Counted from the first letter of the stretch, positions 26,697-47,271 are shown. The stretch is 64,000 bases of DNA from Opitutales bacterium (GCA_965197745.1 CBDANS010000006.1:1453834-1517833), one strand, 5' to 3'. Made by a program: numbers and translations. Notes: a model not told the origin generated them from the sequence alone.

Positions 26697-26748
26697 AAAA
26701 CGCATCTCATTGCCATTGACTGCAATCGTGTTTTCTGCACAATATAAA

Positions 26749-27573: not shown

Positions 27574-27637
27574 GACTAAATATTAATTATTCAGTTGCCA
27601 AATCACGCAAATAATCGAGACAAGATATGCATGGATT

Positions 27638-27665
27638 TTGTGAAGGTATGCGTAATAATTATACT
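27638..27665 (+). promoter_or_regulatory. Candidate sigma70 promoter for the dioxygenase array
   Basis: TTGTGA-16 nt-TATACT in the only long gap (143 bp) before the 19-gene run. Confidence 0.35.
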
Positions 27666-27716
27666 TCGAAAAACAACAGGATTCCATTTTAATAGATAAA
27701 ATAAAAAAGGTCATAT

Positions 27717-28538: not shown

Positions 28539-28572
28539 AGCCAAAATTTTTATTAGTATAGGACGAATACCC

Positions 28573-29442: not shown

Positions 29443-29455
29443 AGATCAATAATTC

Positions 29456-30334: not shown

Positions 30335-30345
30335 AAATATTAATT

Positions 30346-31164: not shown

Positions 31165-31184
31165 TAAAATAAATTTAATATACG

Positions 31185-32003
31185 ATGCTAACCGAACAAC
31201 AGATACACCAATTCCATACCTTCGGGTTCCTCGTCTTAAAGAACATTTTAAACGAGGACGAACTAAAGATCATCAATGAGGAATTCGAAAAGGGCTTGGC
31301 AAAAAAAGACAAAAGTGAATTAATCGCCGGCGCGCGCGTGCAGTTGAACTGGTCTAACCTGGAGTCTCAAAGTCCCTATACGGCCTCACTGTTGGAAGAT
31401 AAGCGAATTCATAGGGTCGCGCAGCAGCTCTGGGGAGAAGATGTAATAGGAAAAAACTCACAGGCCAACCATTACGCCGGTAACCGCAGTCCCTGGCACC
31501 CGGATGTTGGCCCTGATATACACGGGTGTAAATTCGTTTTTTATCTCTCACCTGTAGACGCCGATTCGGGAGCACTAAGGGTCATCCCCGGTTCACATCG
31601 TCCGGAGTTCAGCGATAGGATCAAAAAAGTACGATTAAAGGACAATGATCCCGGACCGCCTGAAGACCCGGGCCTTGCGGTTAACGAAATTCCCTTTTGT
31701 TCCTGCGATTCTCAACCGGGTGACGCGGTACTGTTCAACTATTTGCTCTGGCATGCCAGCTGGCATGGTTCCGATAACCGGCGCATGGTATCCTTACAGT
31801 ATTGGAAAAATCCCAAGACTCCTGAAGAAAAAGAAGCGATGGCAGCAATGGCGAGCGGTTTTGTGAAGAGAAGTCATGATAAATTATCCGTTGTTCAACC
31901 TTATCCGGATTTCTGGCTTTCCAATCCGGATAATAGTCCCCTGCGCGCGCGCTGGATAGAGTGGCTTAATGAATGGGGATTTATTGAATCCATGCCCGTC
32001 TAA
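31185..32003 (+). CDS. PhyH-family dioxygenase #7 (clade A; near-duplicate of #6)
   Basis: Same length as #6 with long identical stretches; WHPD, WHASW. Confidence 0.92.
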   Translation: MLTEQQIHQFHTFGFLVLKNILNEDELKIINEEFEKGLAKKDKSELIAGARVQLNWSNLESQSPYTASLLEDKRIHRVAQQLWGEDVIGKNSQANHYAGNRSPWHPDVGPDIHGCKFVFYLSPVDADSGALRVIPGSHRPEFSDRIKKVRLKDNDPGPPEDPGLAVNEIPFCSCDSQPGDAVLFNYLLWHASWHGSDNRRMVSLQYWKNPKTPEEKEAMAAMASGFVKRSHDKLSVVQPYPDFWLSNPDNSPLRARWIEWLNEWGFIESMPV

Positions 32004-32034
32004 ATTTACACGAATAATAGAGTGAAGATCGCCG

Positions 32035-32820
32035 ATGCTTACCGAGCAGCAAGTCACGTTTTTTAATACCTTCGGGTTCATTGTCCTGAGGAAAGTGTTT
32101 TCTGAAGGGGAGCTCACGATAATGAATGATGAGTTTGACTCCTTATTAAAAATTATCCAGCGCGAGAGACCTGACGGCGAACTGCCTAAACATTTTAACT
32201 GGTCTAACCTTGGCCCGGAGACGCCATACCTCAGCGCGCTGCCGGAAGATCCGCGCATTTGTGAAACAGCAGAACAGCTATTTGGAGAAGACACGGTTGC
32301 CGTGTCATCGAACAGCAACCGCAGGGTGGGAGACACACGCTGGCATACGGATCAATCGCACCCCCATTCTCATGGAATGAAATTTGCCGCTTATTTGCAA
32401 CCCCTCGAAGCCAGTAATGGCGCCTTTCGTGTCATTCCGGGATCCCATAAACAACCTTTTAATGATAATCTTAAGCATATAAAAATGGATAGTCCGGAGA
32501 TCTCAGTACCCTCTTATTCCTGTGATTCAGCTCAAGGTGATATCGTCCTTTTCAACTTTGCCCTGTGGCATTCCAGTTGGGGCGGGTCCTCCGATCGCCG
32601 CGCGTGCACCGTGGATTTCTATAAGAATCCTCATACCACGGAAGAAGTAGAGGGCACCTATGACCAGGTAAAAGTCGACGAACAGGTTTACGCGAAAGTC
32701 CGCACCTACGGTCCAGGTTTCCATCCGCACTGGTTAGCCAATCCTCAAAACAGTCCCCGGCGACAGCGCTGGATTGACTGGCTGCGGAAATACGGATTTG
32801 TCAAATCAGAAGCGGCCTGA
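32035..32820 (+). CDS. PhyH-family dioxygenase #8 (clade A)
   Basis: WHTD, GAFRVIPGSH, WHSSW. Confidence 0.92.
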   Translation: MLTEQQVTFFNTFGFIVLRKVFSEGELTIMNDEFDSLLKIIQRERPDGELPKHFNWSNLGPETPYLSALPEDPRICETAEQLFGEDTVAVSSNSNRRVGDTRWHTDQSHPHSHGMKFAAYLQPLEASNGAFRVIPGSHKQPFNDNLKHIKMDSPEISVPSYSCDSAQGDIVLFNFALWHSSWGGSSDRRACTVDFYKNPHTTEEVEGTYDQVKVDEQVYAKVRTYGPGFHPHWLANPQNSPRRQRWIDWLRKYGFVKSEAA

Positions 32821-32854
32821 ATATATCTAATCAATAATAGAAGGGGTAAAAGTT

Positions 32855-33685
32855 ATGATCACTGAACAGCAGGTATATTTTTTTAAAACTTTCGGATTTC
32901 TCGTCCTGAAAAATGTATTAACAGCGGATGAATTGAAAATAATAAATGAAGAGTTTGCGGTGGGGTTGGCTAAAATGGATGAAAGCAAAATGGGCGCTTC
33001 CGTGAGGAAGCAGTACAATTGGACTAATCTCGGACCTGATTCACCTTTCACCGCCTCTTTGCTTGAGGATGAACGGTTCTATGGGGTAGCGCAGAAGATT
33101 TTGGGGGATGACTGTGTGGGTGTTGATTCTCATGCCAATCAATATAACGGAAATCGCAGTCCCTGGCATCCCGATATAAGGGAACCAGGGCCGGACCAAT
33201 TCAGTGGTTTTAAATTTACATTTTACCTGGCCCCCGTTGATGGCAACTCGGGTGCCCTCAGGGTTATACCCGGTTCACATCGACCCGGGTTCAGTGCGGA
33301 AGTCAACAAGGTCTACATGAAAGATAATAATCCCGGACCGGACGATGATCCTGGCCTGGCTGTAAACGAAACCCCCGCCCACGTCTGCGTGTCCGAACCC
33401 GGGGACGCGGTAATTTTTGATTATTATGTCTGGCACTCCAGCTGGGGTGGCTCGACAGATCGCCGGATGGTATCTTTACAGTATTACAAGAATCCAAAGA
33501 CTCCGAAGGAAGAGGAAGGTATGCGCCAGATGGTCGACTTTCGGAAAAATTTTAATAAAGGCTTTAAGCGTGAAACAAAACTATACCCCGATTTCTGGCT
33601 TTCAAATCCTCAAAATAATGCTATGCGTTGTCAATGGATAGAATGGCTTCATAAGTGGGGTTTTATCGATCCTGTTAATGCCTGA
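32855..33685 (+). CDS. PhyH-family dioxygenase #9 (clade A)
   Basis: WHPD, GALRVIPGSH, WHSSW. Confidence 0.92.
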   Translation: MITEQQVYFFKTFGFLVLKNVLTADELKIINEEFAVGLAKMDESKMGASVRKQYNWTNLGPDSPFTASLLEDERFYGVAQKILGDDCVGVDSHANQYNGNRSPWHPDIREPGPDQFSGFKFTFYLAPVDGNSGALRVIPGSHRPGFSAEVNKVYMKDNNPGPDDDPGLAVNETPAHVCVSEPGDAVIFDYYVWHSSWGGSTDRRMVSLQYYKNPKTPKEEEGMRQMVDFRKNFNKGFKRETKLYPDFWLSNPQNNAMRCQWIEWLHKWGFIDPVNA

Positions 33686-33708: not shown

Positions 33709-34572
33709 ATGATCGCTGAAAACTACAGCCTCACCGAAAAGCAAATCCTGCATTTTGAAACCTTCGGATTCCTGGTTCGCAGAAAAGTTTTTAGTGCCGA
33801 GGAAATGGCGAAAGTGAACGATGAATTCGATCGCCGCCGGGCTTCCATTCTGGCCGAAATCGACCCTGAAGAAAAACGGACTTTCACTCAATGGCCTACC
33901 CGAAATCCGGAAAATCCTTTTACAGCCAGCTTGCTCGATGACCCGCGTATTTATGTGCCCTCTGAACAACTGGTAGGTGAAGACTCCATTCCCGTCCAAT
34001 CTCACTGCAATAGTTATGGGTTAAGTAGTGGATGGCATGTGGATACTTATGATCGTCGTTTATGTGTTATCAAAAACATCATGTATCTTCAACCGACATC
34101 TGCCGATCGTGGGGCCTTGCGGGTTATCCCCGGTTCGCATAGAAGTCCGTTATCGGAAGACCTGCGCAGTATGGGTTTGTATGGTTTCCATGAAGACTCG
34201 TCGCCGTTTTTAAAAGCATCCGGTATGCGCGGAGAAGATATACCCGGTTACATTTTTGAGTCGGAGCCTGGCGATATCATTATATTTAACGAGTTAACCT
34301 GGCATGCGGCTTTTGGCGGTTATAAAGACCGCCGTACCTGCTCCTTTAACTTTTTCACCAACCCAAAGACAGACAGTGAAATTGAGACGATGAAAAAAAT
34401 AGTGGAACACACCCCTGCAAACACAAAGGGTTTGGGTACCGTAGGATTGGAATACGATCCCACCTGGTTGGAAAATGCCGACAACAATCCGCGCCGCGAG
34501 CGCTGGATTAATTGGTTGGAAGAATGGGGCTTTGTGGATGCTTTTAATAATTTAAATCTAAAAAAAATCTAG
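33709..34572 (+). CDS. PhyH-family dioxygenase #10 (clade B)
   Basis: WHVD, GALRVIPGSH, WHAAFGG. Confidence 0.92.
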   Translation: MIAENYSLTEKQILHFETFGFLVRRKVFSAEEMAKVNDEFDRRRASILAEIDPEEKRTFTQWPTRNPENPFTASLLDDPRIYVPSEQLVGEDSIPVQSHCNSYGLSSGWHVDTYDRRLCVIKNIMYLQPTSADRGALRVIPGSHRSPLSEDLRSMGLYGFHEDSSPFLKASGMRGEDIPGYIFESEPGDIIIFNELTWHAAFGGYKDRRTCSFNFFTNPKTDSEIETMKKIVEHTPANTKGLGTVGLEYDPTWLENADNNPRRERWINWLEEWGFVDAFNNLNLKKI

Positions 34573-34583
34573 ACTAGAATATC

Positions 34584-35477
34584 ATGATACAGAATAACTA
34601 TAGAATTAGTGATCAGGAGATCGCGCTCTTTAAATCATTCGGATTTTTAGTCAGGAGAAATGTGTTTACGCCCGAAGAAATGGCAAAAGTAAACGAGGAG
34701 TTCGACCGTCGCCGTGCGTCGGTGGTCGCGGAAATTGATCCGAAAGAAGAACGGATTTTTACCCAGTGGCCGACCCGAAACCCGGAGTCGCCCTTTACGG
34801 CCAACCTGCTGGAAGACCCGCGTATTTACGTGCCCATGGAACAACTGACAGGTGAAGATTCAGTTCTCTTTCAATCCAACTGTAATAGTTATTCCTGGGA
34901 CGAACAAAACTGGCATTGTGATACCGGAGTCACGGAAATAGATATGATCAAGAATGTCATGTACCTTCAGCCAACAACCGCTGACAACGGTGCTTTACGT
35001 TTTTTACCCGGGTCACACAGAAATCCATTGCGTGAAGAACTTTTTAACATGCAGTTGGCAAAACCACGCGGTGAAATAGGTATATTTTATGAAGCATCCG
35101 GTCTGCGCGGTGAAGATATACCCTGCTTTATTTTTGAATCACAACCGGGTGATATCGTTGCTTTTAACGAGTTAACCTGGCATGCCGCTTTTGGTGGCTT
35201 TAAAGATCGTCGCTCCTGCACCTTTAATTTTATTCAGCACCCGAAAACACCTGAGCAGAGAACAGGCGTGCAGAATATGGTAGTGGGAGCTGCTCACAGC
35301 GTAGAGGCCCAGGGAACGGTGGGCTTGCAGTATCATCCCACGTGGTTGGAAAATCCTGATAACAGTCCGCGGCGAGCACGCTGGATTAAAAATTTAAATG
35401 AATGGGGTTTTATCGAGGCTTATAATAATGGAACTTACACAGAAAAAAATGATACAGGAAAATTACAGCCTAACTGA
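34584..35477 (+). CDS. PhyH-family dioxygenase #11 (clade B)
   Basis: WHCD, GALRFLPGSH, WHAAFGG; reads 29 nt into the next gene. Confidence 0.92.
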   Translation: MIQNNYRISDQEIALFKSFGFLVRRNVFTPEEMAKVNEEFDRRRASVVAEIDPKEERIFTQWPTRNPESPFTANLLEDPRIYVPMEQLTGEDSVLFQSNCNSYSWDEQNWHCDTGVTEIDMIKNVMYLQPTTADNGALRFLPGSHRNPLREELFNMQLAKPRGEIGIFYEASGLRGEDIPCFIFESQPGDIVAFNELTWHAAFGGFKDRRSCTFNFIQHPKTPEQRTGVQNMVVGAAHSVEAQGTVGLQYHPTWLENPDNSPRRARWIKNLNEWGFIEAYNNGTYTEKNDTGKLQPN

Positions 35478-36294
35478 AGCGCAGATTCAGCATTATGAAG
35501 TATTTGGTTTTTTGGTAAGGCGAAACGTCTTCAGTGCTGAAGAGGTGACGAGAATGAATGAAGAATTCGATCGTCGCCTTGCAATCATCCTTGAGGAAAC
35601 CGATCCAGAAGGGAAACGGATTTTCAACAACTGGCCTAACCGGACTCCGGATACCCCTTTTATTGCAAGTTTGCTTGATGATCCGCGTATTTATCAACAC
35701 TCCGAACAACTAATCGGTGAAGACTCTGTTCCCGTCCATTCTAACGCCAACAGCTATGGTAAAGATAGTGGATGGCATCCGGACAGGACCGATCATAGTA
35801 TTTGCACCATTAAAAATGTCATGTATCTGCAAAAGACAACCGCGGAACGCGGTGCCTTACGCGTTATTCCCGGGTCGCACCAAAATCCATTGCATGAAGA
35901 TCTTCTCCACATTGGATTGAAGGGGTTCAATGAAGACGAAGCTCAGTTTTTGAAAGGATCCAGTCTGCGCGGTGAAGATATTCCCTGCTATATATTTGAA
36001 TCAAATCCGGGTGATGTCATTACTTTTAACGAGTGGACCTGGCACGCGGCTTTTGGCGGTTATAAAGATCGCCGTACCTGCACCTTTAATTTTTATCGTA
36101 ACCCGAAAGCACCCGATGAAATTGCATCGATGCAATTGGAAGTAAAAAACTATGCTGAAGAGACTAAAAACTTAGGGACGGTGGGCTTACAATTTCACCC
36201 TTGGTGGTTGGAAAATCCAGACCACAATCCGCGCCGTGAGCGCTGGATCAATTGGTTAAAAGAATGGGGTTTCGTCGAAGCTCAATATAAATAA
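35449..36294 (+). CDS. PhyH-family dioxygenase #12 (clade B)
   Basis: Start ATG 35449 (MIQENYSL); WHPD, WHAAFGG. Confidence 0.92.
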   Translation: MIQENYSLTEAQIQHYEVFGFLVRRNVFSAEEVTRMNEEFDRRLAIILEETDPEGKRIFNNWPNRTPDTPFIASLLDDPRIYQHSEQLIGEDSVPVHSNANSYGKDSGWHPDRTDHSICTIKNVMYLQKTTAERGALRVIPGSHQNPLHEDLLHIGLKGFNEDEAQFLKGSSLRGEDIPCYIFESNPGDVITFNEWTWHAAFGGYKDRRTCTFNFYRNPKAPDEIASMQLEVKNYAEETKNLGTVGLQFHPWWLENPDHNPRRERWINWLKEWGFVEAQYK

Positions 36295-36311
36295 CTTCGA
36301 TTTTGAATTAA

Positions 36312-37136
36312 ATGATACAGGAAAATTACAGCCTCAGTGAAGAACAGATTCAGCATTATGAAGTATTTGGTTTTTTGGTAAGGCGAAATGTCTTCACTGC
36401 TGAGGAGGTGGCGAGAATGAACGAGGAGTTTGATCGTCGTTTTGCCACCGTCCTCAAGGAAACAGACCCTGAAGGGAAGCGGTTCTTCAACTGGACAAAT
36501 CTGACCGAGGAGACGCCATTTATTGCAAGTTTGCTCAATGACCCGCGAATTTATCTCCACTCCGAACAACTGATTGGTGAAGATTCCGTTTTTATCAATT
36601 CGCACTCCAACAGTTTCCCGAAAGGTACTGGATGGCATCCAGATAGGATCGATCATAATATGTGCGCCATAAGAAATGTCATGTATCTGCAGCCGACAAC
36701 TGCGGACCGTGGAGCCTTGCGTGTTATTCCCGGGTCGCACAAAAATCCACTGCATGAAGAGCTTCTCCGCATCGGATTGTGGGTCTCCAAAGGTAAAGGA
36801 TCACCGTATTTAGAGAAATCCGGTCTGAGCGGTGAAGATATACCCTGCTACATATTTGAGTCACATCCGGGCGATATCATTACCTTTAACGAGTTAACCT
36901 GGCATGCTGCCTTTGGTGGGTATAATGATCGTCGCACCTGCAACTTTGATTTTTATCGCAATCCGAAGACACCTGATGAAATAGCCTCGATGCGATTGGA
37001 AGCAAAAAAAGGTAAGCAATATCATCCCTGGTGGTTGGAAAATCCTGACAACATTCCGCGACGTGAACGCTGGATTAACTGGTTAAAAGAATGGGGTTTC
37101 TTCGAAGCTAAAAATAAAAATTCAATTCTTAATTAA
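36312..37136 (+). CDS. PhyH-family dioxygenase #13 (clade B)
   Basis: WHPD, WHAAFGG; about 11-aa in-frame deletion before YHPWW relative to #12. Confidence 0.92.
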   Translation: MIQENYSLSEEQIQHYEVFGFLVRRNVFTAEEVARMNEEFDRRFATVLKETDPEGKRFFNWTNLTEETPFIASLLNDPRIYLHSEQLIGEDSVFINSHSNSFPKGTGWHPDRIDHNMCAIRNVMYLQPTTADRGALRVIPGSHKNPLHEELLRIGLWVSKGKGSPYLEKSGLSGEDIPCYIFESHPGDIITFNELTWHAAFGGYNDRRTCNFDFYRNPKTPDEIASMRLEAKKGKQYHPWWLENPDNIPRRERWINWLKEWGFFEAKNKNSILN

Positions 37137-37137
37137 A

Positions 37138-37983
37138 ATGATACAGGAAAATTACAGCCTTAGCGAAGCGCAGATTCAGCATTTTGAAGTATTTGGTTTT
37201 TTGGTAAGGAGAAATGTTTTCACTGCTGAGGAGGTAGCGAGAATGAACGAGGAGTTTGATCGTCGCCTCGCAGCTATTATCGAGGAATCCGTTCCTGATG
37301 AGAATCGGACATTAAACAACTGGACTAATCGGACCCCGGATACCCCTTTTATAGCGAGTTTGCTTGATGACCCGCGTATATATATGCACTCCGAACAACT
37401 GATTGGTGAAGACTCCGTTCCCGTCCATTCTAACGCCAACAGTTATGGGACAAGTACCCATTGGCATCCGGATAGGACAGATCAAAATATGTGCGCTATT
37501 AAAAATGTCATGTATCTGCAGCCGACAACCGCAGAACGCGGCGCCTTGCGTGTTATTCCCGGGTCGCACAAAAATCTTCTACACGAAGATCTTCTCCGCA
37601 TCGGATTGAGAGGGGACAAAGATGCCGAACATAATTTTTTAGAAGAATCCGGACTGCGGGGTGAAGATATACCTTGTTACGTATTTGAATCGGAACCGGG
37701 TGATGTCATTACCTTTAATGAGTTGACATGGCACGCAGCATTTGGCGGTTATGTAGACCGCCGCACCTGTACCTTTAACTTTTATCACAACCCGAAGTCA
37801 CCCGAAGAGATCGAGTCGATGCGAAAAGAAGTGGAACTTATTTCTAATAGCAATAATAGATTGGGGACCGTGGGGTTGCAATACCATCCCTGGTGGTTGG
37901 AAAATCCTGATAATAATCCACGTCGGACGCGCTGGATCAATTGGCTGAAAGATTGGGGATTTGTCGATGCTTATGATAATTGA
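37138..37983 (+). CDS. PhyH-family dioxygenase #14 (clade B)
   Basis: WHPD, WHAAFGG. Confidence 0.92.
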   Translation: MIQENYSLSEAQIQHFEVFGFLVRRNVFTAEEVARMNEEFDRRLAAIIEESVPDENRTLNNWTNRTPDTPFIASLLDDPRIYMHSEQLIGEDSVPVHSNANSYGTSTHWHPDRTDQNMCAIKNVMYLQPTTAERGALRVIPGSHKNLLHEDLLRIGLRGDKDAEHNFLEESGLRGEDIPCYVFESEPGDVITFNELTWHAAFGGYVDRRTCTFNFYHNPKSPEEIESMRKEVELISNSNNRLGTVGLQYHPWWLENPDNNPRRTRWINWLKDWGFVDAYDN

Positions 37984-38003
37984 AAAAATTTTACTAAAAT
38001 AAA

Positions 38004-38849
38004 ATGATACAGGAAAATTATAGTCTCAGCGAAGCGCAGATTCAGCATTTCGAAGTTTTTGGATTCCTCGTCCGGAGGCAGGTGTTCAGTTCCGAGGAAG
38101 TGGCTAGAATGAACGAAGAATTCGATCGTCGCCTGGCATGCATCGTCAGAGAAACAGATCCTGAAGGGAAACGGATTTTCAATAACTGGCCTAACCGGAG
38201 TCCTGAAACCCCTTTTATTGCCAGTGTGCTTGAGGACCCGCGTATTTATCTTCCTGCAGAACAGCTGACAGGTGAAGACTCTGTTCCTGTCAATTCTAAT
38301 GCCAACAGCTATGGGATAAATAGCACTTGGCATGCGGATACGAATGATCATCATTTGTGCATAATCAAAAATGTCATGTATCTGCAACCGACAACCGCGG
38401 ACCACGGTGCATTGCGAGTTATTCCTGGGTCGCATAAAAATCCGTTACATGAAGATCTTCTCCACATCGGATTGGAGGAGGGGGAAATTAACGAACCTCG
38501 ATTTTTAGAAAAATCCGGCATGCGCGGTGAAGAGATACCCTGCTACATATTTGAGTCGAATCCGGGCGATATCATTACCTTTAATGAATTAACCTGGCAT
38601 GCTGCCTTTGGTGGCTATAGAGATCGTCGCACATGCACTTTTAATTTTTCTCGCAATCCGAAGACTCCCGAGGAGATCGAGTCGATGCAAAAAGAGTTGG
38701 AACGCTTTCCTGAAGGCAATAAGATTTTGGGAACAGTGGGAATGCAATACCATCCCTGGTGGTTGGAAAATCCTGATCATAACCCGCGGCGTATGCGCTG
38801 GATTAATTGGTTGACAGAGTGGGGCTTCATTGAAGCAGGTAATAATTAA
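38004..38849 (+). CDS. PhyH-family dioxygenase #15 (clade B)
   Basis: WHAD, WHAAFGG. Confidence 0.92.
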   Translation: MIQENYSLSEAQIQHFEVFGFLVRRQVFSSEEVARMNEEFDRRLACIVRETDPEGKRIFNNWPNRSPETPFIASVLEDPRIYLPAEQLTGEDSVPVNSNANSYGINSTWHADTNDHHLCIIKNVMYLQPTTADHGALRVIPGSHKNPLHEDLLHIGLEEGEINEPRFLEKSGMRGEEIPCYIFESNPGDIITFNELTWHAAFGGYRDRRTCTFNFSRNPKTPEEIESMQKELERFPEGNKILGTVGMQYHPWWLENPDHNPRRMRWINWLTEWGFIEAGNN

Positions 38850-38850
38850 A

Positions 38851-39696
38851 ATGATCCAGGAAAATTATAGCCTCAGTGAGGCGCAGATTCAGCATTTTGA
38901 AGTTTTTGGCTTCCTCGTCCGAAGAGCGGTATTCAGTACCGAGGAAATTAATAAAATGAACGCGGAGTTCGATAAGCGTCTCGCCTCCCTTAAAGCAAAA
39001 GCAGACCCAAGCGAAGAAAGGCTTTTCAATAACTGGCCCAATCGAAATCCGGAAACACCTTATATTGCCAGCTTGCTCGAAGATCCGCGTATTTATGTCC
39101 CCGCGGAGCAGTTAGTAGGCGAAGACTGCGTCCCCGTTCACTCCAATGCCAACAGTTACGCGAAAAGTTCCGCCTGGCATCCGGATACCACAGATCCCCA
39201 CCTCTTAATGATAAAAAATGTCATGTATTTGCAGCCAACCACGGGGGACCATGGAGCCCTGAGAGTCATCCCCGGATCTCACATGAATCCCTTACATGAA
39301 GAGCTTCTTCGCATAGGATTAGATTGTTCATTTGGTAAAGAATCCAGATATTTAAAAGAGTCCGGTCTGCGGGGTGAAGATATTCCGAGCTTTATTTTCA
39401 GTTCACAGCCGGGTGATTTGATTATGTTCAACCAAAGGACATGGCACGCCGCTTTTGGCGGCTATGAGGACCGCCGTACTTGTACCTATAATTTCTACAA
39501 AAGTCCCAAGTCATCTGAAGAAAAAGAGTCATTGCACAAACAGTTAGAAGTCGCCCGGAAAAATATTAAATATTTGGGAACTGTAGGGCAGCAATACCAC
39601 CCCTGGTGGTTGGAAAATCCCGAAAGCAATCCGAGGCGAGAACGTTGGATCCAATCGTTAAAGGAATGGGGCTTTGTAGAAGCTAAAAATAATTAA
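38851..39696 (+). CDS. PhyH-family dioxygenase #16 (clade B)
   Basis: Start ATG 38851; WHPD, WHAAFGG. Confidence 0.92.
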   Translation: MIQENYSLSEAQIQHFEVFGFLVRRAVFSTEEINKMNAEFDKRLASLKAKADPSEERLFNNWPNRNPETPYIASLLEDPRIYVPAEQLVGEDCVPVHSNANSYAKSSAWHPDTTDPHLLMIKNVMYLQPTTGDHGALRVIPGSHMNPLHEELLRIGLDCSFGKESRYLKESGLRGEDIPSFIFSSQPGDLIMFNQRTWHAAFGGYEDRRTCTYNFYKSPKSSEEKESLHKQLEVARKNIKYLGTVGQQYHPWWLENPESNPRRERWIQSLKEWGFVEAKNN

Positions 39697-39717
39697 ATAT
39701 CCTAAACAATAAATACT

Positions 39718-40575
39718 ATGATCCAAAAAAACCACAGTCTAACAAAAGAGCAGGTCCAGCATTTTGAGACTTTCGGTTTTCTTGTCCGTCGCCAGGTGTT
39801 CAGCCCGGATGAAGTTAACCGGATTAACGAGGAGTTCGATAAGCATCTCGCCGCGATTAAAGATGATTTTGATAATATTAAAGACAGCCGTTCCCGTAAA
39901 TGGCCTAATTGGTCGAATCTCATTCCGGAGACCCCTATGATCGCAACTTTGTTGGAAGATCCACGCATTTGTGTGCCCACGGAGCAATTACAAGGAGAAG
40001 ACACCGTTCCCGTGTATTCCAATGCTAACAGCTTTAGACAAAACACCAACTGGCACCCGGATATGAGGCAACGACATATTCGCGCGCTCAAAAATCTCAC
40101 TTATCTGCAACCCACGACTGCTGAACACGGATCTTTACGTCTCATTCCTGGTTCGCATATAAGTCCTTTATTTGATGAGCTGATTCGCATCGGGTTGAGA
40201 CCTGCTGATGATAGTGAAGCTGATTTTCTAACAGAATCCGGTATGCGTGGCGAAGATATTCCCGCTTATGTATTTTCTTCAAAGCCGGGTGATGTCGTTA
40301 CTTTTAACATGAATGTATGGCACGCGGCTTTTGGGGGCTATGAAGACCGAAGGAACTGTTCTCTTGCCTATTACAGCAATCCTAAGACAGCTCAAGAAGA
40401 AGAGGACCTGCGTGCGCAGGTAGAAAATGCCAAATCCATCAGTTCGAGAATGGATTTGCAGGATGCACCATACTACCATCCCTGGTGGTTGGAAAATCCC
40501 GAGGGCAGTGCGAAGCGGGCACGCTGGATAAAATGGTTGGATAAATGGGGCTTTATAGAAGCAATGAATAATTAA
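39718..40575 (+). CDS. PhyH-family dioxygenase #17 (clade B)
   Basis: WHPD, GSLRLIPGSH, WHAAFGG. Confidence 0.92.
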   Translation: MIQKNHSLTKEQVQHFETFGFLVRRQVFSPDEVNRINEEFDKHLAAIKDDFDNIKDSRSRKWPNWSNLIPETPMIATLLEDPRICVPTEQLQGEDTVPVYSNANSFRQNTNWHPDMRQRHIRALKNLTYLQPTTAEHGSLRLIPGSHISPLFDELIRIGLRPADDSEADFLTESGMRGEDIPAYVFSSKPGDVVTFNMNVWHAAFGGYEDRRNCSLAYYSNPKTAQEEEDLRAQVENAKSISSRMDLQDAPYYHPWWLENPEGSAKRARWIKWLDKWGFIEAMNN

Positions 40576-40595
40576 GTAACCCCGAAAATAATATT

Positions 40596-41456
40596 ATGAA
40601 CCAGGAAAATCACAGTCTGACAGATGAGCAGATCCAGCATTTTGAAACCTTCGGTTTTATTGTCCGTCGCCAGGTCTTCAGTCCGAAGGAAATTGATCGG
40701 ATCAATGAGGAGTTCGAGCAGTATCTGACGACGATTAAAGACGAATTTGAGAAGAAAGTCGGGCAGGGCCGAGGCTGGCCCAATTGGTCCAACTTGAATC
40801 CGGATACGCCCTATATGGCAAGTTTGTTGGAAGATCCTCGCATTTGCGTGCCCTCAGAACAGTTACTGGGAGAAGACACCTTCCCCGTTTATTCCAATGC
40901 CAACAGCTTTAGATATAACAGCGGCTGGCATCCAGATGCTAAATTGCAACATTTGCGGATGCTCAAAAATCTTGTCTATCTGCAACCCACGACCGGTGAC
41001 AACGGTTCTTTGCGTGTAATCCCAGGGTCGCATAAAAGTCCACTCTTTGATGATCTCCAACACCTGAAGATGGTTAATTCTGATGATAAGCAATCAAACT
41101 CTTTAAAAGAATCGGGCATACGCAGCGAAGATATTCCCGCTTATATTTTCTGTTCGCAGCCGGGTGATGTCATTACCTTTAACCATAGATTATGGCACGC
41201 GGCTTTTAATGGTTACGAAGACCGAAGGAACTGCTCTTTTGCTTTTTTCAGCAATCCCAAAACGGCTCAAGAGGAAGAGGATTTGCGTGCACAAGCAGTA
41301 GCTGCTAAAAACACCGCAAATGGACTGAAAATGGTTTTGAAAGATTCGAAATACTATCACCCCTGGTGGTTGGAGAACGCAGAGGGTAGTGCGAAGCGCG
41401 AGCGCTGGATAAAAAGGCTCGATAAATGGGGCTTTATCGAAGCAGTGAATAATTAA
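40596..41456 (+). CDS. PhyH-family dioxygenase #18 (clade B)
   Basis: WHPD, GSLRVIPGSH, WHAAFNG. Confidence 0.92.
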   Translation: MNQENHSLTDEQIQHFETFGFIVRRQVFSPKEIDRINEEFEQYLTTIKDEFEKKVGQGRGWPNWSNLNPDTPYMASLLEDPRICVPSEQLLGEDTFPVYSNANSFRYNSGWHPDAKLQHLRMLKNLVYLQPTTGDNGSLRVIPGSHKSPLFDDLQHLKMVNSDDKQSNSLKESGIRSEDIPAYIFCSQPGDVITFNHRLWHAAFNGYEDRRNCSFAFFSNPKTAQEEEDLRAQAVAAKNTANGLKMVLKDSKYYHPWWLENAEGSAKRERWIKRLDKWGFIEAVNN

Positions 41457-41471
41457 TCACAGGGTTATATT

Positions 41472-42338
41472 ATGATCCAGGAAACTCACAGTCTTACCGA
41501 AGCGCAGGTCCAGCACTTTGAAACCTTCGGTTTTATAGTCCGTCGCCAGGTCTTCAGCCCGGATGAAATTGACCGGATCAACAAGGAGTTTGATAAATAT
41601 CTCGCGGCGATTAAAGAGGAATTTGAAAAGAAATCAGATCCCAGTACGCATCGCTGGCCTAATTGGTCAAACATGAATCCGGATACCCCTTATATGGCAA
41701 GTTTGTTGGAAGATCCGCGCATTTATGTTCCCACCGAACAATTACAGGGAGAAGACACGGTTCCCTTGTATTCCAATGCCAACAGCTTTAGATTTAACAG
41801 CAACTGGCATGCAGATACGCGGCAATGTCATTTGCCTATGCTTAAAAATCTCGTCTATCTGCAACCCACGACCGGTGACCACGGATCTTTGCGTGTGATT
41901 CCAGGTTCGCATAAGAGTCCCCTCTACGATAATCTCCAACGCCTGAAGATGAGTCCCTCTGATGATAAGCAGTCGAAATCTTTAAAGGAATCCGGCATGC
42001 GTGGCGAAGATATTCCCGCTTATATATTCTGTTCGCAGCCAGGTGATGTCATTACCTTTAACATGAGATTATGGCACGCGGCTTTTGGCGGATATGAAGA
42101 CCGCAGGAACTGTTCCCTTGCCTTTTGCAGCAATCCCAAGACGGCAGAAGAAGAAGAAGATCTAAAATCACAGTTAGAAAATGCCAAAACTTTGACAGAC
42201 GGGCTGAAAATGGAATTGAAAGATTCGAAATACTACCACCCCTGGTGGTTGGATAATCCCGAGGGCAGTCCGAGACGCGCACGCTGGATACAATGGCTGG
42301 ATGATAAGGGCTTTATTGAAGCGGTTAATAAGAATTAA
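41472..42338 (+). CDS. PhyH-family dioxygenase #19 (clade B)
   Basis: WHAD, GSLRVIPGSH, WHAAFGG. Confidence 0.92.
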   Translation: MIQETHSLTEAQVQHFETFGFIVRRQVFSPDEIDRINKEFDKYLAAIKEEFEKKSDPSTHRWPNWSNMNPDTPYMASLLEDPRIYVPTEQLQGEDTVPLYSNANSFRFNSNWHADTRQCHLPMLKNLVYLQPTTGDHGSLRVIPGSHKSPLYDNLQRLKMSPSDDKQSKSLKESGMRGEDIPAYIFCSQPGDVITFNMRLWHAAFGGYEDRRNCSLAFCSNPKTAEEEEDLKSQLENAKTLTDGLKMELKDSKYYHPWWLDNPEGSPRRARWIQWLDDKGFIEAVNKN

Positions 42339-43203
42339 CTTAAAGGATCCCATCATCATAAAGGAAAAATACACGCTCACCGAAGAGCAGATCCAGCACT
42401 ATGAAATCTTCGGTTTTCTTATCCGTCGTCAAGTATTCAGCTCTGAGGAAATTGAGAGAATCAACGGGGAGTTCGATAAACGTCTCGCTACCCTGAAACG
42501 TGAAAATGATCTGAAAGAAGATGACCAAATTCATAACTGGTGCAATCGCAATCCAGAAACACCTTATGTGGCCAGCTTACTGGAGGATCCCCGCATTTAC
42601 ATACCTTCAGAGCAATTATTAGGAGAAGACGCCGTTCCCGTGTATTCCAATTCCAACAGCTATCGGGAAAACACTTCCTGGCACCCGGATTCGAAGGAGC
42701 GCCATTTACGATTGCTCAAAAATGTAACCTATCTGCAACCAACCTCCGCTGATCGCGGTTCTTTGCGTCTCATTCCCGGTTCACACAAGAGTCCCTTATT
42801 TGATGAGCTGCATCGGATCGGATTGAATATCTATGACGATGAGAACAAATCCAATTTTATGGAAGAATCAGGTCTCCGAGGTGAAGATATTCCCTGCTAT
42901 ATATTCTCTTCTCAACCAGGCGATATCATTACCTTTAACCAGAACACATGGCATGCGGCTTATGGTGGTTACGAAGACCGAAGGACGTGCACCTTTAATT
43001 TCATCTGCAACCCCAAAACTGCTGAAGAAACAGCAGAACTGCGCGCCAAGGTGAAACATGCCGGGAGTATTAAAAAAAGACTGCGAACCCTGGGGCCACA
43101 ATACCATCCGTGGTGGTTGGCCAATCCTGAAGGCAATATCAGGCGTGCGCGCTGGATAAAATGGTTGGAAGAGTGGGGTTTTGTCGAATCGATGAAGAAT
43201 TAA
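42301..43203 (+). CDS. PhyH-family dioxygenase #20 (clade B); start uncertain (ATG 42301 or ATC 42355)
   Basis: WHPD, WHAAYGG; the codon aligned with the paralogs' Met1 is ATC. Confidence 0.88.
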   Translation: MIRALLKRLIRINLKDPIIIKEKYTLTEEQIQHYEIFGFLIRRQVFSSEEIERINGEFDKRLATLKRENDLKEDDQIHNWCNRNPETPYVASLLEDPRIYIPSEQLLGEDAVPVYSNSNSYRENTSWHPDSKERHLRLLKNVTYLQPTSADRGSLRLIPGSHKSPLFDELHRIGLNIYDDENKSNFMEESGLRGEDIPCYIFSSQPGDIITFNQNTWHAAYGGYEDRRTCTFNFICNPKTAEETAELRAKVKHAGSIKKRLRTLGPQYHPWWLANPEGNIRRARWIKWLEEWGFVESMKN

Positions 43204-43223
43204 TTAACCCCCAGAGTGATTTT

Positions 43224-44075
43224 ATGATCCAGGAAAATCACAATCTCATTGAAGAGCAGATCCAACATTTTAAGACATTTGGTTTTCTTGTCCGCCGCCA
43301 GGTGTTCAGCGCGGAAGAAGTTGAGAGGACCAACGAGGAGTTCAGCCGCCGCCGCGCATTCATCCTCGCGGGGCTCAATGCTGATGAAAAAAAAGGTTTC
43401 AGAACATGGCCAATCCGAAATCCGAAAAGCCCGTATATCGCGAGTTTATCTGAAGACCCCCGAATTTATGTGCCCTCAGAGCAACTCTTAGGTGAAGACT
43501 CCGTATTACTCCAGTCCAACTGCAACAGCTATAGGGTAGACACTGCCTGGCACTCGGATACGAAGGATCGCCATTTGCGATTAATTAAAAATGTAATATA
43601 TCTGCAACCCACCACTGCCGAACGTGGTGCCTTGCGTCTCATTCCCGGTTCACACATGAGCCCCTTATACGATGATCTGGTAGGGATCGGCTTGGATCTT
43701 TATGTCAAAGATCAACAGTCCTATTTTCTGAAGGATTCCGAGTTTTGCGGTGAAGATATCCCCAGCTATATATTTTCTTCACAGCCGGGCGACATTATCA
43801 CTTTTGCCCAGTGTACCTGGCACGCGGCTTTTGGTAGTTTCGAAGACCGAAGGACGTGCACCTTTAATTTCATCGGCAACCCAAAAACAGCTGAAGAAAA
43901 AGCGGAACTGCGTGCCATGGCGGAGCAAGCCGGGAGTCGGAGTTTTAAAGAATTACCGGTCCAGGGGCCCCAATGTCATCCGTGGTGGATGGCCAATTCT
44001 GAAGCCAATGCCAGGCGCGCGCGGTGGATTGAAAAGTTAGAAGAGTGGGGTTTTGTCGAAGCGGTGAAAATTTAA
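43224..44075 (+). CDS. PhyH-family dioxygenase #21 (clade B)
   Basis: Start ATG 43224; WHSD, WHAAFGS. Confidence 0.92.
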   Translation: MIQENHNLIEEQIQHFKTFGFLVRRQVFSAEEVERTNEEFSRRRAFILAGLNADEKKGFRTWPIRNPKSPYIASLSEDPRIYVPSEQLLGEDSVLLQSNCNSYRVDTAWHSDTKDRHLRLIKNVIYLQPTTAERGALRLIPGSHMSPLYDDLVGIGLDLYVKDQQSYFLKDSEFCGEDIPSYIFSSQPGDIITFAQCTWHAAFGSFEDRRTCTFNFIGNPKTAEEKAELRAMAEQAGSRSFKELPVQGPQCHPWWMANSEANARRARWIEKLEEWGFVEAVKI

Positions 44076-44148: not shown

Positions 44149-44952
44149 CTAGTCGTCTCGGAAAGGAATGAAGTCGGGAACTTCTTTTGCGCCCAGTCGC
44201 GGCAAGTCCTCAACCATCTGTCGTATACGTGGGCGATCGCTAGTTAAGAGGGTTTCTGCAGGTTCAAATATATTCTTTTTATAATAACGCAGCGAGGCGA
44301 GATGCATGTCGGTCGTCGGTCGAGCCGCAAATTTTAGCGCAATATAACGCCGGCCTTTTTTTCCATTAAACATGGAATGCCAGAGACTCTGGCTGAAAAA
44401 TAAGACATCACCCGGGCGACATTCAAAAGGAAAGCCGGGTATATCCGGTCCGGGGACATCGAATGGTTTAACATAATCTCCGTGCTGATGACGATTTTCC
44501 GGTTCTATTTGCCCATGAAGGGGCAGCCGATGGGAACCGGGTATCACGCGCAGGCAGCCATTATCTTTATCCAAGGGGTCGAGATAGAGCATGACTTTAA
44601 TTCTGAGGTAGGAAACTTCCTCCTCATCACCGGGACGGTCAGGATGCCAGCCATGCTCACGATGATAGGTTACTTGTCCCTCAGATCCAGCCCAGACAAA
44701 TCCAGGCCCGAGCAATCCCTCGATCGTGTCCTGGATGCGATCGTCATCGAGTAGTTCCAGCAGCGGGGAATGCCGTTCAACAAACTCATCTAATGATAAC
44801 TCCTCGTCTTTCGAAGACTCTTTTTTTCTGTCATCCACCCATAATTTTTCGGCTTCGCTTGTTATCTTATCAATCTCTTCGGGGGTGAAAGCCTGGCGCA
44901 GGATAAGAAAGCCAAAGGCGTCAAAATGTGCTTTCTGTTCGGGAGCTATCAT
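44149..44952 (-). CDS. PhyH-family dioxygenase #22 (clade C)
   Basis: WHPDRPG, CLRVIPGSH, WHSMF, RRYIALKFAA. Confidence 0.92.
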   Translation of the reverse strand: MIAPEQKAHFDAFGFLILRQAFTPEEIDKITSEAEKLWVDDRKKESSKDEELSLDEFVERHSPLLELLDDDRIQDTIEGLLGPGFVWAGSEGQVTYHREHGWHPDRPGDEEEVSYLRIKVMLYLDPLDKDNGCLRVIPGSHRLPLHGQIEPENRHQHGDYVKPFDVPGPDIPGFPFECRPGDVLFFSQSLWHSMFNGKKGRRYIALKFAARPTTDMHLASLRYYKKNIFEPAETLLTSDRPRIRQMVEDLPRLGAKEVPDFIPFRDD

Positions 44953-45004
44953 ATTCGGGCTCAGCTAATTAATTATATTTAGATTATCAGGTAAAATCTA
45001 TTGC

Positions 45005-45853
45005 TCAATTAATACTATTCTCTTCTCGTTGATGATAGAGTGAAGCTTTTAAATCATCACAATAGGGTATGAAGGCAGGTACTTTTTTTGCGCCCAGGCG
45101 TGGTAAATCCTCAACCATTCGGCGAATTTTGGGATTATCGCTTTTTAACAAGATATCTGCCGGTTCAAACATGTGCTTAGTATAATAGCGCAGGGAGGCG
45201 AGTTGCTTATCCATTAACGGACGCGCCGCAAATTTCAGCGCGATATAGCGCCGCCCTTTTGTCCCATTGAACATGCCATGCCAGAGACTATGATTGAAAA
45301 ATATAACATCACCCGGACGACATTCTAATGGAAAACCGGGCATATCCGGCCCAGTGATGTCGAAAGGCTTAACATGATCCTCGTGCTGGTGGTGTTCCTG
45401 CGGTTCTATTTGCCCATGAAGGGGTAGCTGATGGGAGCCCGGTATCACGCGCAGACATCCACTGTCTTTATCCAGGGGATCGAGGTAGATCATAACTTTA
45501 ATTCTCTGATAGGAGAGTTCCTCTTCATCACCGGGTCTGTCCGTATGCCAACCATGGTAACGATGACTGGTAACTTGTCCTTCAGATCCAGCAAAGATAA
45601 AATTAGGTCCGAGCAATCCCTCGATCGTCCCATGAATCCGATCGTCAACGAGAAGATTAATCAGTGTGGGACGCAGCTCAACGAACTCATCTGAACTTAA
45701 CTCTTCGTCCTGCGAAGGACATTTCTTCCTGTGTTCACTCCAAATTGTTCCAGCTTCGCTTGTTATCTTTTCAATCTCTTCAGGTGAGAAAGCCTGACGG
45801 AGGATAAGAAATCCAAAGACGTCAAAATGTGCTTTCTGTTCAGAAGTTAACAT
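45005..45853 (-). CDS. PhyH-family dioxygenase #23 (clade C)
   Basis: WHTDRPG, CLRVIPGSH, WHGMF, RRYIALKFAA; close paralog of #22. Confidence 0.92.
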   Translation of the reverse strand: MLTSEQKAHFDVFGFLILRQAFSPEEIEKITSEAGTIWSEHRKKCPSQDEELSSDEFVELRPTLINLLVDDRIHGTIEGLLGPNFIFAGSEGQVTSHRYHGWHTDRPGDEEELSYQRIKVMIYLDPLDKDSGCLRVIPGSHQLPLHGQIEPQEHHQHEDHVKPFDITGPDMPGFPLECRPGDVIFFNHSLWHGMFNGTKGRRYIALKFAARPLMDKQLASLRYYTKHMFEPADILLKSDNPKIRRMVEDLPRLGAKKVPAFIPYCDDLKASLYHQREENSIN

Positions 45854-45952
45854 AGTGATAATTTATTTTTTATAAATAGTTTATCAGGTTAACTTTAATT
45901 CTCAATTAAATAGATTGTCATGTTGTAAGTGATGTAATGGTATTCGACAACG

Positions 45953-46942
45953 ATGAAAAAGGTAATGGGAATAGATGGAGGAGGGACACAAACGCGTGCA
46001 ATAATCCTTGATGAAAAGGGCCATTTTCTTGGTCTCGGGCAAGCCGGTCCTTCCAATCCCAATGCCGTAGAGCTCGAACAATCCCTGACCGCGATCAATG
46101 GAGCTATGGCCTGCGCCTGTGAAAGTGCAGAGGTAAAGTTAAATGAAATCGATGCTGTGTTCCTCGGAATTTCCGGGCTGCCGCGCGTTAATCGTGAAGC
46201 TTTCAAAAAAACATTGACGGAGAAACTATCGTTCACCCCATCGCAATCTTTTGCTATCGATCATGATTTGCACATCGCCTTGACGGGTGGATTAGCCGCT
46301 GAGCCGGGAATGGTTCTCGTTGTCGGCACGGGATCGGCCTGTTATGGACTGAAGGAAGATGGCAGTCGCAGTCAGGCAGGCGGGTGGGGATACCTTGTTG
46401 ATGATTTTGGCAGCGCCTATTGGATAGGATTGCAAGCGCTTGCCGCGGTCGCGCAATCCGCGGATAGCCGCTCCGGGCCCACGGCGCTTACCTTGGCGAT
46501 CAAAGGGGCCTTAGAGATAAATGAGATGAACGAGTTAATAAGCCTTATCTATGACCCTGATTTTAGCCAGCAGGAGATAGCAGCACTGGCACCGCACGTT
46601 TTCTATGCGGTGAGTTCGGGTGACACTGCCGCTCTGGCCATCATTAATCGAGGGTGCAGGGAACTGGCGCGTATGGCGACAACCGTGGCCCGTAAACTCA
46701 ATTGGAAAAATGAGCCTTTAAAAATTGTGATCACCGGCGGCGTGGCCCGCGCCAAAAAACAATTTATGAACCCGCTGAAAGCAGCATTAAAAGCCAGACT
46801 GCCCCAGGCCAGGCTTATCAAGCCAATCCTTCCTCCCGTTTTCGGTGCTGCATTACTTGCTTATAAGATGATAAATGTATCACCGGATAATTCACTTTTA
46901 GGGAAACTTAAGGAAGCAGCAAAAGCGAAAAAGCTGAGTTAG
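45953..46942 (+). CDS. BadF/BadG/BcrA/BcrD-type sugar (GlcNAc-like) kinase
   Basis: GIDGGGTQT, GPSNP, DHD..IAL, VVGTGS, AGGWGYLVDDFGSAYWIG, ITGGV. Confidence 0.9.
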   Translation: MKKVMGIDGGGTQTRAIILDEKGHFLGLGQAGPSNPNAVELEQSLTAINGAMACACESAEVKLNEIDAVFLGISGLPRVNREAFKKTLTEKLSFTPSQSFAIDHDLHIALTGGLAAEPGMVLVVGTGSACYGLKEDGSRSQAGGWGYLVDDFGSAYWIGLQALAAVAQSADSRSGPTALTLAIKGALEINEMNELISLIYDPDFSQQEIAALAPHVFYAVSSGDTAALAIINRGCRELARMATTVARKLNWKNEPLKIVITGGVARAKKQFMNPLKAALKARLPQARLIKPILPPVFGAALLAYKMINVSPDNSLLGKLKEAAKAKKLS

Positions 46943-47028
46943 GATCACCGGGTGGATGATGGGATTGCGGAATTGCGAATGCGGATTTCGGATTGTTCCT
47001 GACGGTTATTAATTTCGTAATATTCGAT

Positions 47029-47119
47029 TTGTCATTGCGAGAAGCAGTGCGCCACGGTCGGCTGATAGCCTCCCTCGCAATGACAAGAGGAGGTGGAACG
47101 CGCTGTCCCTAACGCGTTG
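47029..47119. repeat. TGTCATTGCGA...TCGCAATGACA palindrome followed by a GGTGG REP-like unit
   Basis: Matches the 18033-18141 and 6074-6100 families. Confidence 0.7.
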
Positions 47120-47271
47120 AGGATGAAACAATTAAAGAAACGCGACGAAGCGACAATGCTATCGAAGCTCCTGCCTTGGGTTAATATCCGTATAACAAGG
47201 ATTGGTATTTAAGTATTGAAAGCAGAATTAAACAGGATAAATTAGAAACAGAAATTAAAGAAAGAGGACAG

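Follow-up and report, generated by a model that had tools for sequence, protein, structure and literature searches.

Twelve adjacent genes at positions 33709-44075 of a 64,000-nucleotide stretch of a marine Opitutales bacterium genome (GCA_965197745.1 CBDANS010000006.1:1453834-1517833; this whole stretch is the window below) are, by profile, catalytic triad and fold, members of the PhyH family with predicted Fe(II)/2-oxoglutarate (2OG) dioxygenase activity. They combine a nearly constant scaffold with a few short segments that differ sharply from copy to copy. Comparison with the same array in a sister genus shows that these segments diversified long ago and have been conserved since. The explanation that we favor, and consider likely though well short of certain, is that the array consists of old tandem duplicates of one PhyH-family dioxygenase gene, which gained differing substrate specificities that were then frozen.

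Under this explanation, the invariant scaffold would perform the 2OG/O2 chemistry and the variable stretches would set specificity, so that each paralog would oxidise (for example, hydroxylate) a different member, or a different position, of a set of related imported small molecules. The substrate cavity would be built by the loop after the second helix, an inward-facing position of strand betaI together with the betaI-betaII turn, the betaII-betaIII loop, the betaIV-betaV lid, and the helix after betaVIII. These segments acquired an excess of amino-acid changes between paralogs and have since stayed under purifying selection in every lineage, with rare conversion tracts between neighbors moving whole segments, the lid included. 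The paralogs would accordingly differ in specificity. The array enzyme itself is probably cytosolic and dimeric; inspection of the sequences found no N-terminal hydrophobic stretch in the 12 array proteins.

Variable segments that are old and conserved among orthologs

A sequence-only reading of the window had described near-invariant blocks (FGFLVRR.VF, LL.DPRI, YLQPT, GEDIP, WHAAFGG, and HPWWL.NP) interrupted by five places of sharp difference. The blocks are confirmed in the 12 copies with few exceptions: FGFIVRR or FGFLIRR in three copies; VLEDPRI and LSEDPRI; YLQKT in copy 3; GEEIP and SEDIP; WHAAFNG, WHAAYGG, and WHAAFGS; and DPTW and HPTW in copies 1-2. All of the variable strings that had been quoted are likewise present in the 12-copy alignment, in which 74 of 290 columns are invariant. 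Mismatch is strongly clustered along this alignment, with column autocorrelations of 0.38, 0.30, and 0.26 at lags 1, 2, and 3 against an expectation of 0 ± 0.06 (0 of 5000 shuffles reach the observed values), and smoothing over seven columns leaves exactly five variable runs, at alignment columns 48-61, 108-110, 118-123, 160-172, and 230-255, which coincide with the five places first described (segments i to v; Table 1). The claim for the strand before HxD (segment ii) had to be narrowed: it is variable at one strand position (His97 in copy 5, our reference for the structure model and residue numbering) and in the turn before W-H-x-D (here ii2), but the strand overall is moderately variable. 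The shortened helix before YHPWW that had been seen in the copy numbered '#13' belongs to copy 4 and is shared by orthologs in two other genomes.

The copies are old. Among the 12, the closest paralog pairs have a synonymous divergence (dS) of at least 0.65 and most pairs are saturated, and the whole-gene ratio of non-synonymous to synonymous divergence (dN/dS) between paralogs is at most 0.29 wherever it can be estimated. The same array occurs in three genomes from a sister genus within the family (G001, G002, and G003, of which one is labelled an Opitutales metagenome-assembled genome and one the single-cell genome Opi.OSU.00C), with 13, 11, and 7 copies of the clade to which the twelve genes belong (clade B). 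A maximum-likelihood (ML) tree of 52 rows, comprising 43 array copies, five dispersed copies, and four outgroups from clade A, has 32 of its 49 inner branches starred and resolves collinear orthogroups, most of them starred, which places the duplications before the separation of the two genera. Copy number has changed slowly, with an extra duplicate of copy 3 in G001 and with copy 6 absent from G002 and G003. In addition, two orthogroups of the sister genus have no counterpart in the window's array, and the orthologs of copies 5 and 6 stand in swapped order in G001 relative to the window.

Contigs from four public sequencing runs hold the array nearly unchanged. On one public-run contig, at a low depth of 4.7, position 37876 is joined to 38743 across 35 shared letters, which skips 866 nt, exactly one repeat unit, and would fuse copies 5 and 6; similar contig joints are found at 41920->42875 and 41952->41127. 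Such joints may represent a copy-number variant produced by unequal crossing-over or, alternatively, an assembly artefact at shared 31-mers.

The segments, as well as the genes, are kept within orthogroups. In the segments, mean mismatch falls from 0.68 between orthogroups to 0.22 inside them; in the scaffold, it falls from 0.31 to 0.12. The lids of several paralogs (copies 4 and 7, for example) are identical or near-identical across genera, paralog-specific lid strings are found again in many of 100 further public homologs, and two lid types segregate among relatives of copy 10. Strictly paralog-specific columns number 21 of 298 and include His97, the x of HxD, and His149; position 97 is H, Q, N, or Y depending on the paralog, with no variation inside the ten larger orthogroups.

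Estimates of selection agree with this picture of conservation. When the window genes were compared with their sister-genus orthologs (11 pairs pooled), dN/dS was 0.31 in segment i, 0.03 in strand ii, 0.40 in turn ii2, 0.21 in segment iii, 0.37 in the lid (segment iv), and 0.17 in helix v, or 0.23 for the segments overall and 0.10 for the scaffold. The corresponding ML ratio, omega, estimated from 48 sequences under GY94, was 0.281 for all segments and 0.112 for the scaffold, with values of 0.26 (i), 0.07 (ii), 0.75 (ii2), 0.28 (iii), 0.34 (iv), and 0.26 (v), all below 1. A per-site likelihood test, which fits separate synonymous and non-synonymous rates to each column on a fixed tree, covered 277 testable columns (21 more were invariant or too gappy) and found dN above dS at uncorrected p<0.05 in a single column and below it at p<0.05 in 200. 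The sole column with dN>dS, column 114 (p=0.011), corresponds to Thr105 of copy 5 and lies within the turn preceding WHxD; it fails correction and holds 13 different residues among the 48 sequences.

The sequence-only reading had called the segments diversifying. Ongoing positive selection, as in a hypervariable repertoire, would find encouragement in column 114, in the two lid variants among the relatives of copy 10, and in the ten close paralog pairs of the window, where dN/dS reaches 1.34 in the six-codon turn and 0.72 in the lid as compared to 0.11 in the scaffold. Even so, we find it barely credible. ML omega stays below 1 in every partition, the top value being that of the same six codons; the one exceptional column is lost on correction, whereas 200 are under purifying selection; orthologs keep their segments; the closest paralog pairs are too far diverged at synonymous sites for any copy to be young; and neither a reverse transcriptase nor any other diversity-generating element was detected in the 29 flanking open reading frames (ORFs) scanned. 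"Diversifying" is better replaced by "diversified long ago, conserved since". A diversity-generating retroelement was also considered as a candidate and rejected, on the lack of a reverse transcriptase in those 29 ORFs and on the age of the copies.

A McDonald-Kreitman-like (MK-like) table, in which the ratio of non-synonymous to synonymous changes (N/S) between orthogroups is set against that within them for five sister orthogroup pairs (Fisher test), supports an earlier, episodic excess of amino-acid replacement between paralogs in the segments. N/S in the segments is 1.92 between and 1.01 within orthogroups (1.9-fold, p=4e-7), as compared to 0.64 and 0.55 in the scaffold (1.16-fold, p=0.2). 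The excess reaches 9.1-fold in strand betaI (p=1.4e-4) and 2.1-fold in helix v (p=1.3e-3), and is not individually significant in segments i, ii2, iii, and iv (p=0.09-0.28). The table speaks only indirectly to whether this excess falls on post-duplication branches; a pattern of this kind is what one would predict had specificity-determining positions been altered once the copies arose and later become fixed.

Recombination has touched these genes in the sister genus. A sliding-window screen for stretches in which a gene is nearer to a paralog than to its own orthologs identified two strong tracts in G001, where the lid of copy 12 (columns 161-205) is derived from the neighboring copy 11 (24 of 29 informative sites, Fisher p=4.9e-10, or 6.8e-6 after correction for 13,861 windows) and the first 48 codons of copy 6 (columns 7-48) are derived from the neighboring copy 7 (18 of 23 sites, p=1.4e-10, or 2.3e-6 window-corrected). 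Both tracts survive an additional rough factor of ~2000 for the pairs screened; conversion hints for window copies 8, 9, and 12 are marginal given that same number of sequence pairs. Within the window's genome, an exact-run permutation test similar to GENECONV gave p=0.003 (1000 shuffles) for the best of 136 pairs, which fails Bonferroni correction, and the longest runs lie on conserved motifs; for these reasons we do not propose gene conversion between any of the 12 array copies of the window. The array is not homogenised, and conversion is rare, yet able to move a whole pocket segment.

Several points weigh against the explanation by frozen specificities. Segment dN/dS among orthologs is two to four times that of the scaffold, and this weaker constraint adds to the variability; the segment borders were, moreover, drawn from the variability itself. 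Clade A is variable at the same places (Spearman 0.54 over 275 columns), so that the arrangement of constant and variable parts characterises the subfamily rather than clade B alone, and the pattern is partly generic, marking where this fold tolerates change. The MK-like table takes species divergence as its "polymorphism", uses five chosen sister pairs, and includes paralog synonymous sites that are near saturation. Finally, the mapping of segments to the pocket (see below) is built on a profile alignment with the ectoine hydroxylase EctD at ~20% identity and on what is said of the family in general, and the predicted dimer may pass its test by mirroring the likeness to the known EctD dimer.

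The weaker constraint, the shared pattern in clade A, and the lack of any site with positive selection after correction would all suit a simpler account, in which the variable stretches are the surface loops under the weakest constraint, in a redundant array of the dosage type, and have drifted neutrally with no change of substrate; the segments also include the loops of lowest confidence in the structure model (predicted local distance difference test, pLDDT, of 62 and 71). We nevertheless regard neutral drift as unlikely. It predicts loops that wander among orthologs, whereas several lids match exactly or almost exactly between two genera and in more distant public homologs, and segment omega (0.17-0.40) is far below 1. 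Strand betaI is also difficult to reconcile with drift, as it is almost immobile among orthologs yet differs between paralogs. Redundancy, in turn, is at odds with twelve copies that stand at synonymous saturation and are all intact. A more general lesson is that an apparently "hypervariable" pattern in one genome can be old, frozen divergence, which is revealed only by comparison of orthologs.

Predicted enzyme, pocket, and dimer

Membership in the PhyH family is indicated by several lines of evidence. PF05721 (PhyH) matches the three copies scanned at 43.3, 55.7, and 56.2 bits (cut-off 22), and the other nine match a clade B hidden Markov model at 481-533 bits. The motifs WH.D, WHAA, and DRR are kept in 12 of 12 copies; W109, H110, D112, and H199 are invariant over 40 aligned relatives, in which R208 and R209 are found in at least 90%. 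Arg209 lies ten residues after His199, with DRR at the start of betaVIII, as the family requires of its basic 2OG residue, and by analogy with Arg-259 of EctD it would bind the C5-carboxylate of 2OG. The AlphaFold2 model of copy 5 (pLDDT 91.2, predicted template modelling score 0.90) has the double-stranded beta-helix topology together with the extended betaIV-betaV connection that characterises the family; strand numbers are our own assignment from the standard topology. VIA-align places the model at Z 19-20 (rmsd, root-mean-square deviation, 2.8-4.2 A over 193-226 residues, identity 17-22%) from PhyH-fold small-molecule oxygenases, with proline hydroxylase H11, EvdO1, HygX, GriE, FtmOx1, and EctD tied as neighbors. 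Because many PhyH-family neighbors tie, no substrate can be read from Foldseek or VIA-align. Among solved structures, EctD is the closest by sequence (profile E=5.9e-17). A PhyH-fold halogenase of the SyrB2/CytC3 type (TIGR01762, with H-x-A/G) was considered and rejected: all 12 copies retain the Asp, and the profile reaches 20.9 bits where the cut-off is 226.3.

Passages of PMC2871039 describe an EctD cavity enlarged by the helix directly after the HxD aspartate, the C-terminal loop, and two N-terminal strands, and state that the largest differences among these enzymes lie at the termini and that the extended betaIV-betaV connection is a family feature. By analogy, the cavity elements described there would be our segments iv, iii, v, and i, and the segment after GSH (iv) would be the extended betaIV-betaV connection. 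The alignment supports the residues after HxD as the likely counterpart of the EctD signature helix with its product-binding residues (PMC5924519, PMC6890836). In the profile alignment, the product-binding Gln-127 of S. alaskensis EctD (residue list from PMC6890836) is paired with His97 of copy 5, and EctD Thr-149 and Trp-150 fall in the loop that matches segment iii, this loop being 7 residues longer in EctD. The earlier proposal that the segments line the substrate pocket draws its support from homology to EctD and from AlphaFold2 topology. It is plausible as a reading of the segments, which by analogy would contact the substrate.

A homodimer of copy 5 is predicted with a score of 0.62, as compared to 0.01 for the best control; the three runs share at least 97% of contacts, with a partner pLDDT of 88 or more. 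Among proteins of known structure, 20 of 30 that were solved as pairs attain the score mark used, as does 1 of 23 single chains. The confident interface comprises residues 9-21, 139-155, 167-173, and 179-181 (37162-37680), which correspond to the conserved N-terminal helix, VIPG, and the conserved lid flanks, and it skips the variable cores (43-61, 97, 104-108, 113-121, 156-166, and 222-248), a residue not named in the interface being uncertain rather than shown absent. The interface residues are conserved over the 12 paralogs, and from this model mixed dimers between co-expressed paralogs are conceivable.

Perhaps the variable stretches tune something other than substrate choice, such as pairing between paralogs, a partner protein, stability, or regulation. 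The predicted copy 5 homodimer and the presence of lid flanks (145-155 and 167-173) within its interface would fit such a role, as would EctD, which according to passages of PMC5924519 is a dimer with an interface formed by loops. However, the predicted interface is made of the conserved parts, and none of the variable cores appears in the confident contacts (weak evidence, given how such residues are to be read). We give this alternative little weight and consider it quite improbable.

Returning to frozen specificities as our preferred explanation, it is tempting to speculate further that the array is a modular repertoire, in which a constant core for catalysis and dimerisation holds interchangeable pocket modules, chiefly the lid and the N-terminal loop, that are shuffled occasionally by gene conversion between neighbors. 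This is a long shot. If true, it would let the lineage assemble new specificities for the diverse small molecules released by marine eukaryotes, and, with the 153 PhyH matches in this genome, would point to a so far undescribed oxidative scavenging strategy in planktonic or host-associated Opitutales. The locus is a natural experiment, with twelve adjacent enzymes, one scaffold, and a short list of positions that are paralog-specific and conserved among orthologs. The 21 strict columns (with His97, the x of HxD, and His149 among them) and the lid are targets for specificity mapping and enzyme engineering.

The array and its surroundings

The 12 genes lie head to tail on the + strand, are intact (no internal stops in the ORF listing), and encode proteins of 274-297 amino acids (aa), with intergenic spacers of -29 to +23 nt. 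Gene starts were set by anchoring on the conserved FGF[LI][VI]RR block, the common start being MIQENYSL; this exposed spurious N-terminal extensions in 4 of the 12 ORFs, and the most likely starts are the first coordinates given in Table 1. Pairwise identity among the copies is 45-77% in protein and 56-81% in DNA. Copy 11, which has a 90% public homolog (P0034), has ATC where the other 11 copies have the ATG start, and its sole in-frame ATG (42301) overlaps copy 10 by 38 nt; the ATC could be an unusual start, the sign of an N-terminal extension, or a decaying start. Scans of 25400-45300 for promoters and terminators gave 38 and 23 sites, close to the 32 ± 6 and 21 ± 5 of shuffled sequence and hence uninformative; the predicted co-transcription of the array genes as an operon is read from their 1-23 nt spacers. 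Among the runs listed for the region, none was of RNA.

Table 1. Array genes, segments, and model elements of copy 5, and flanking parts of the PhyH cluster
Feature	Position	Strand	Description
Clade B copy 1	33709..34572	+	287 aa; PF05721 43 bits; orthologs G1b1, G2b1, G3b1
Clade B copy 2	34584..35477	+	297 aa; C-terminal tail overlaps copy 3 by 29 nt; orthogroup support 100/100
Clade B copy 3	35449..36294	+	281 aa; ORF opens at 35398, conserved MIQENYSL start at 35449
Clade B copy 4	36312..37136	+	274 aa; ~12-residue deletion in helix before YHPWW, common to orthologs
Clade B copy 5	37138..37983	+	281 aa; PF05721 55.7 bits; AlphaFold2 pLDDT 91.2; His110/Asp112/His199, Arg209
Clade B copy 6	38004..38849	+	281 aa; ORF, alignment, tree
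Clade B copy 7	38851..39696	+	281 aa; ORF opens at 38830
Clade B copy 8	39718..40575	+	285 aa; ORF, alignment, tree
Clade B copy 9	40596..41456	+	286 aa; PF05721 56.2 bits
Clade B copy 10	41472..42338	+	288 aa; ORF, alignment, tree
Clade B copy 11	42355..43203	+	282 aa from aligned ATC start; no ortholog in the 3 sister arrays
Clade B copy 12	43224..44075	+	283 aa; ORF opens at 43161
Segment i	37264..37320	+	copy 5 aa 43-61: end of helix alpha2, low-confidence loop, short strand before W62; pLDDT 62 at 51-60
Segments ii and ii2	37417..37461	+	copy 5 aa 94-108: betaI with paralog-specific His97, betaI-betaII turn
H110-x-D112 and segment iii	37465..37500	+	segment iii = copy 5 aa 113-121, betaII-betaIII loop; putative counterpart of EctD signature helix
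Segment iv (lid)	37585..37653	+	copy 5 aa 150-172, betaIV-betaV insert; variable core ~156-166; pLDDT 71 at 161-170
Segment v	37783..37881	+	copy 5 aa 216-248: end of betaVIII, long helix 222-242 before YHPWW
betaI	copy 5 residues 94-103		AlphaFold2
betaII	copy 5 residues 107-110		ends in His110; AlphaFold2
betaII-betaIII loop	copy 5 residues 111-119		AlphaFold2
betaIII	copy 5 residues 120-126		AlphaFold2
betaIV	copy 5 residues 137-139		AlphaFold2
Insert	copy 5 residues 142-180		two short helices, low-confidence core; AlphaFold2
betaV	copy 5 residues 181-183		AlphaFold2
betaVI	copy 5 residues 190-194		AlphaFold2
betaVII	copy 5 residues 199-201		His199; AlphaFold2
betaVIII	copy 5 residues 208-216		Arg209; AlphaFold2
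Long helix	copy 5 residues 222-242		C-terminal helices after 242; AlphaFold2
Upstream part of PhyH cluster	24803..33685	.	- strand copy 24803-25600; aldo/keto reductase gene; divergent copy 26749-27573; seven clade A copies 27717-33685
Downstream part of PhyH cluster	44149..48036	.	- strand PhyH copies 44149-44952 and 45005-45853; NagK-like kinase gene 45953-46942; canonical PhyH gene 47272-48036

The array is the middle part of a cluster of 24 PhyH genes between 24803 and 48036. The whole genome holds 153 PF05721 matches in 4.45 Mb, which by a rough estimate is 4% of genes if ~0.9 genes per kb are assumed, and further PhyH arrays lie elsewhere in it (e.g., C7:1567696-1583860 and C6:1101953-1143168). 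Five more clade B members are dispersed on another contig of the same genome. At C4:99099-99954, on the - strand, a clade-B-like copy is cut by a TAA stop into pieces corresponding to residues 7-170 and 164-278, which share 52-54% identity with copy 5, probably marking a pseudogene.

Neighbors of the cluster encode a DUF4432 protein, an enolase-superfamily protein, an aldo/keto reductase, and a NagK-like kinase. The enolase-superfamily protein is nearest to sugar-acid dehydratases, at 144 bits (below the NCBIfam cut-off of 500), and the kinase scores 148 bits (below the cut-off of 370). As judged from these sequences, the neighboring genes offer a weak hint of sugar-derived acids as substrates, with no pathway defined.

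A first look at PhyH candidates across 61 genomes of the order gave 173, 228, and 230 in the window's family (the latter two being the two sister-genus genomes), 94 and 147 in two other lineages, and fewer than 15 in most others. The subfamily of copy 5 is narrow: a search of 1.84 billion representative proteins returned 56 clusters at E <= 1e-30 and 497 at E <= 1e-10. The ESM Atlas returned solely "PhyH" clusters, with Chloroflexota as the commonest taxon.

Elsewhere in the window, three Cache-domain ORFs (dCache_2/sCache_2) are clustered at 50292-57021 in a stretch of low guanine-plus-cytosine content, with unassigned ORFs between them, and may be fragments or paralogs of one sensor protein. 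An 805-aa ORF at 15343-17760 (- strand) has no Pfam or NCBIfam match, and an ankyrin-repeat protein is encoded at 20363-21256 (Ank, 135 bits). Ankyrin repeats are eukaryote-like and often tied to host association. The window sequence is also found nearly unchanged in public runs that are filed under organisms, not "metagenome".

Relation to known systems

Full-text literature searches found no paper describing a PhyH expansion in Opitutales, and the word "dioxygenase" has 0 occurrences in the single-cell genome paper on the sister genus (Opi.OSU.00C; PMC6003095). A large PhyH family is not unprecedented in another phylum. In 'Candidatus Poribacteria', a sponge symbiont, passages of Kamke et al. 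(2014; PMC3909097) report PhyH as the most abundant Pfam family, at >1.9% of genes as compared to <0.049% in all other genomes of 2013. As these passages present it, that system resembles ours in having a very large and diverse PhyH family in one genome, with substrates mostly unknown. Our genome belongs, however, to Verrucomicrobiota (Opitutales) and carries long, conserved, co-oriented tandem arrays, and neither arrays nor variable-segment patterns are described in those passages.

EctD (PDB 4MHR/4Q5O, 3EMR) is the closest single likeness by sequence, and shares with the array the fold (Z ~19), the HxD...H triad and Arg, the extended betaIV-betaV lid, and a dimeric state (predicted here). 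Identity with EctD was rejected as a candidate, as the 17-residue signature F-x-W-H-S-D-F-E-T-W-H-x-E-D-G-M/L-P is absent from the array and TIGR02408 scores 36 bits against a cut-off of 336.5; in the alignment, copy 5 has WHPDRTDQNMCAI in its place, with the loop shorter by those 7 residues. Unlike EctD, moreover, the array has no ect genes nearby, and clade B possesses its own conserved C-terminal module, YHPWW...RW..WL..WGF.

The array enzymes also share their fold with proline hydroxylase H11, GriE, HygX/EvdO1/AviO1, FtmOx1, and SnoK, all of which act on free small molecules (amino acids, oligosaccharide antibiotics, and alkaloids). Whereas those oxygenases occur singly in biosynthetic clusters, the genes described here stand in arrays of 12 to 24 copies. 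The interest of the array lies mainly in its size and its conservation, as a well-behaved expansion of an enzyme family with probable specificity-determining loops.

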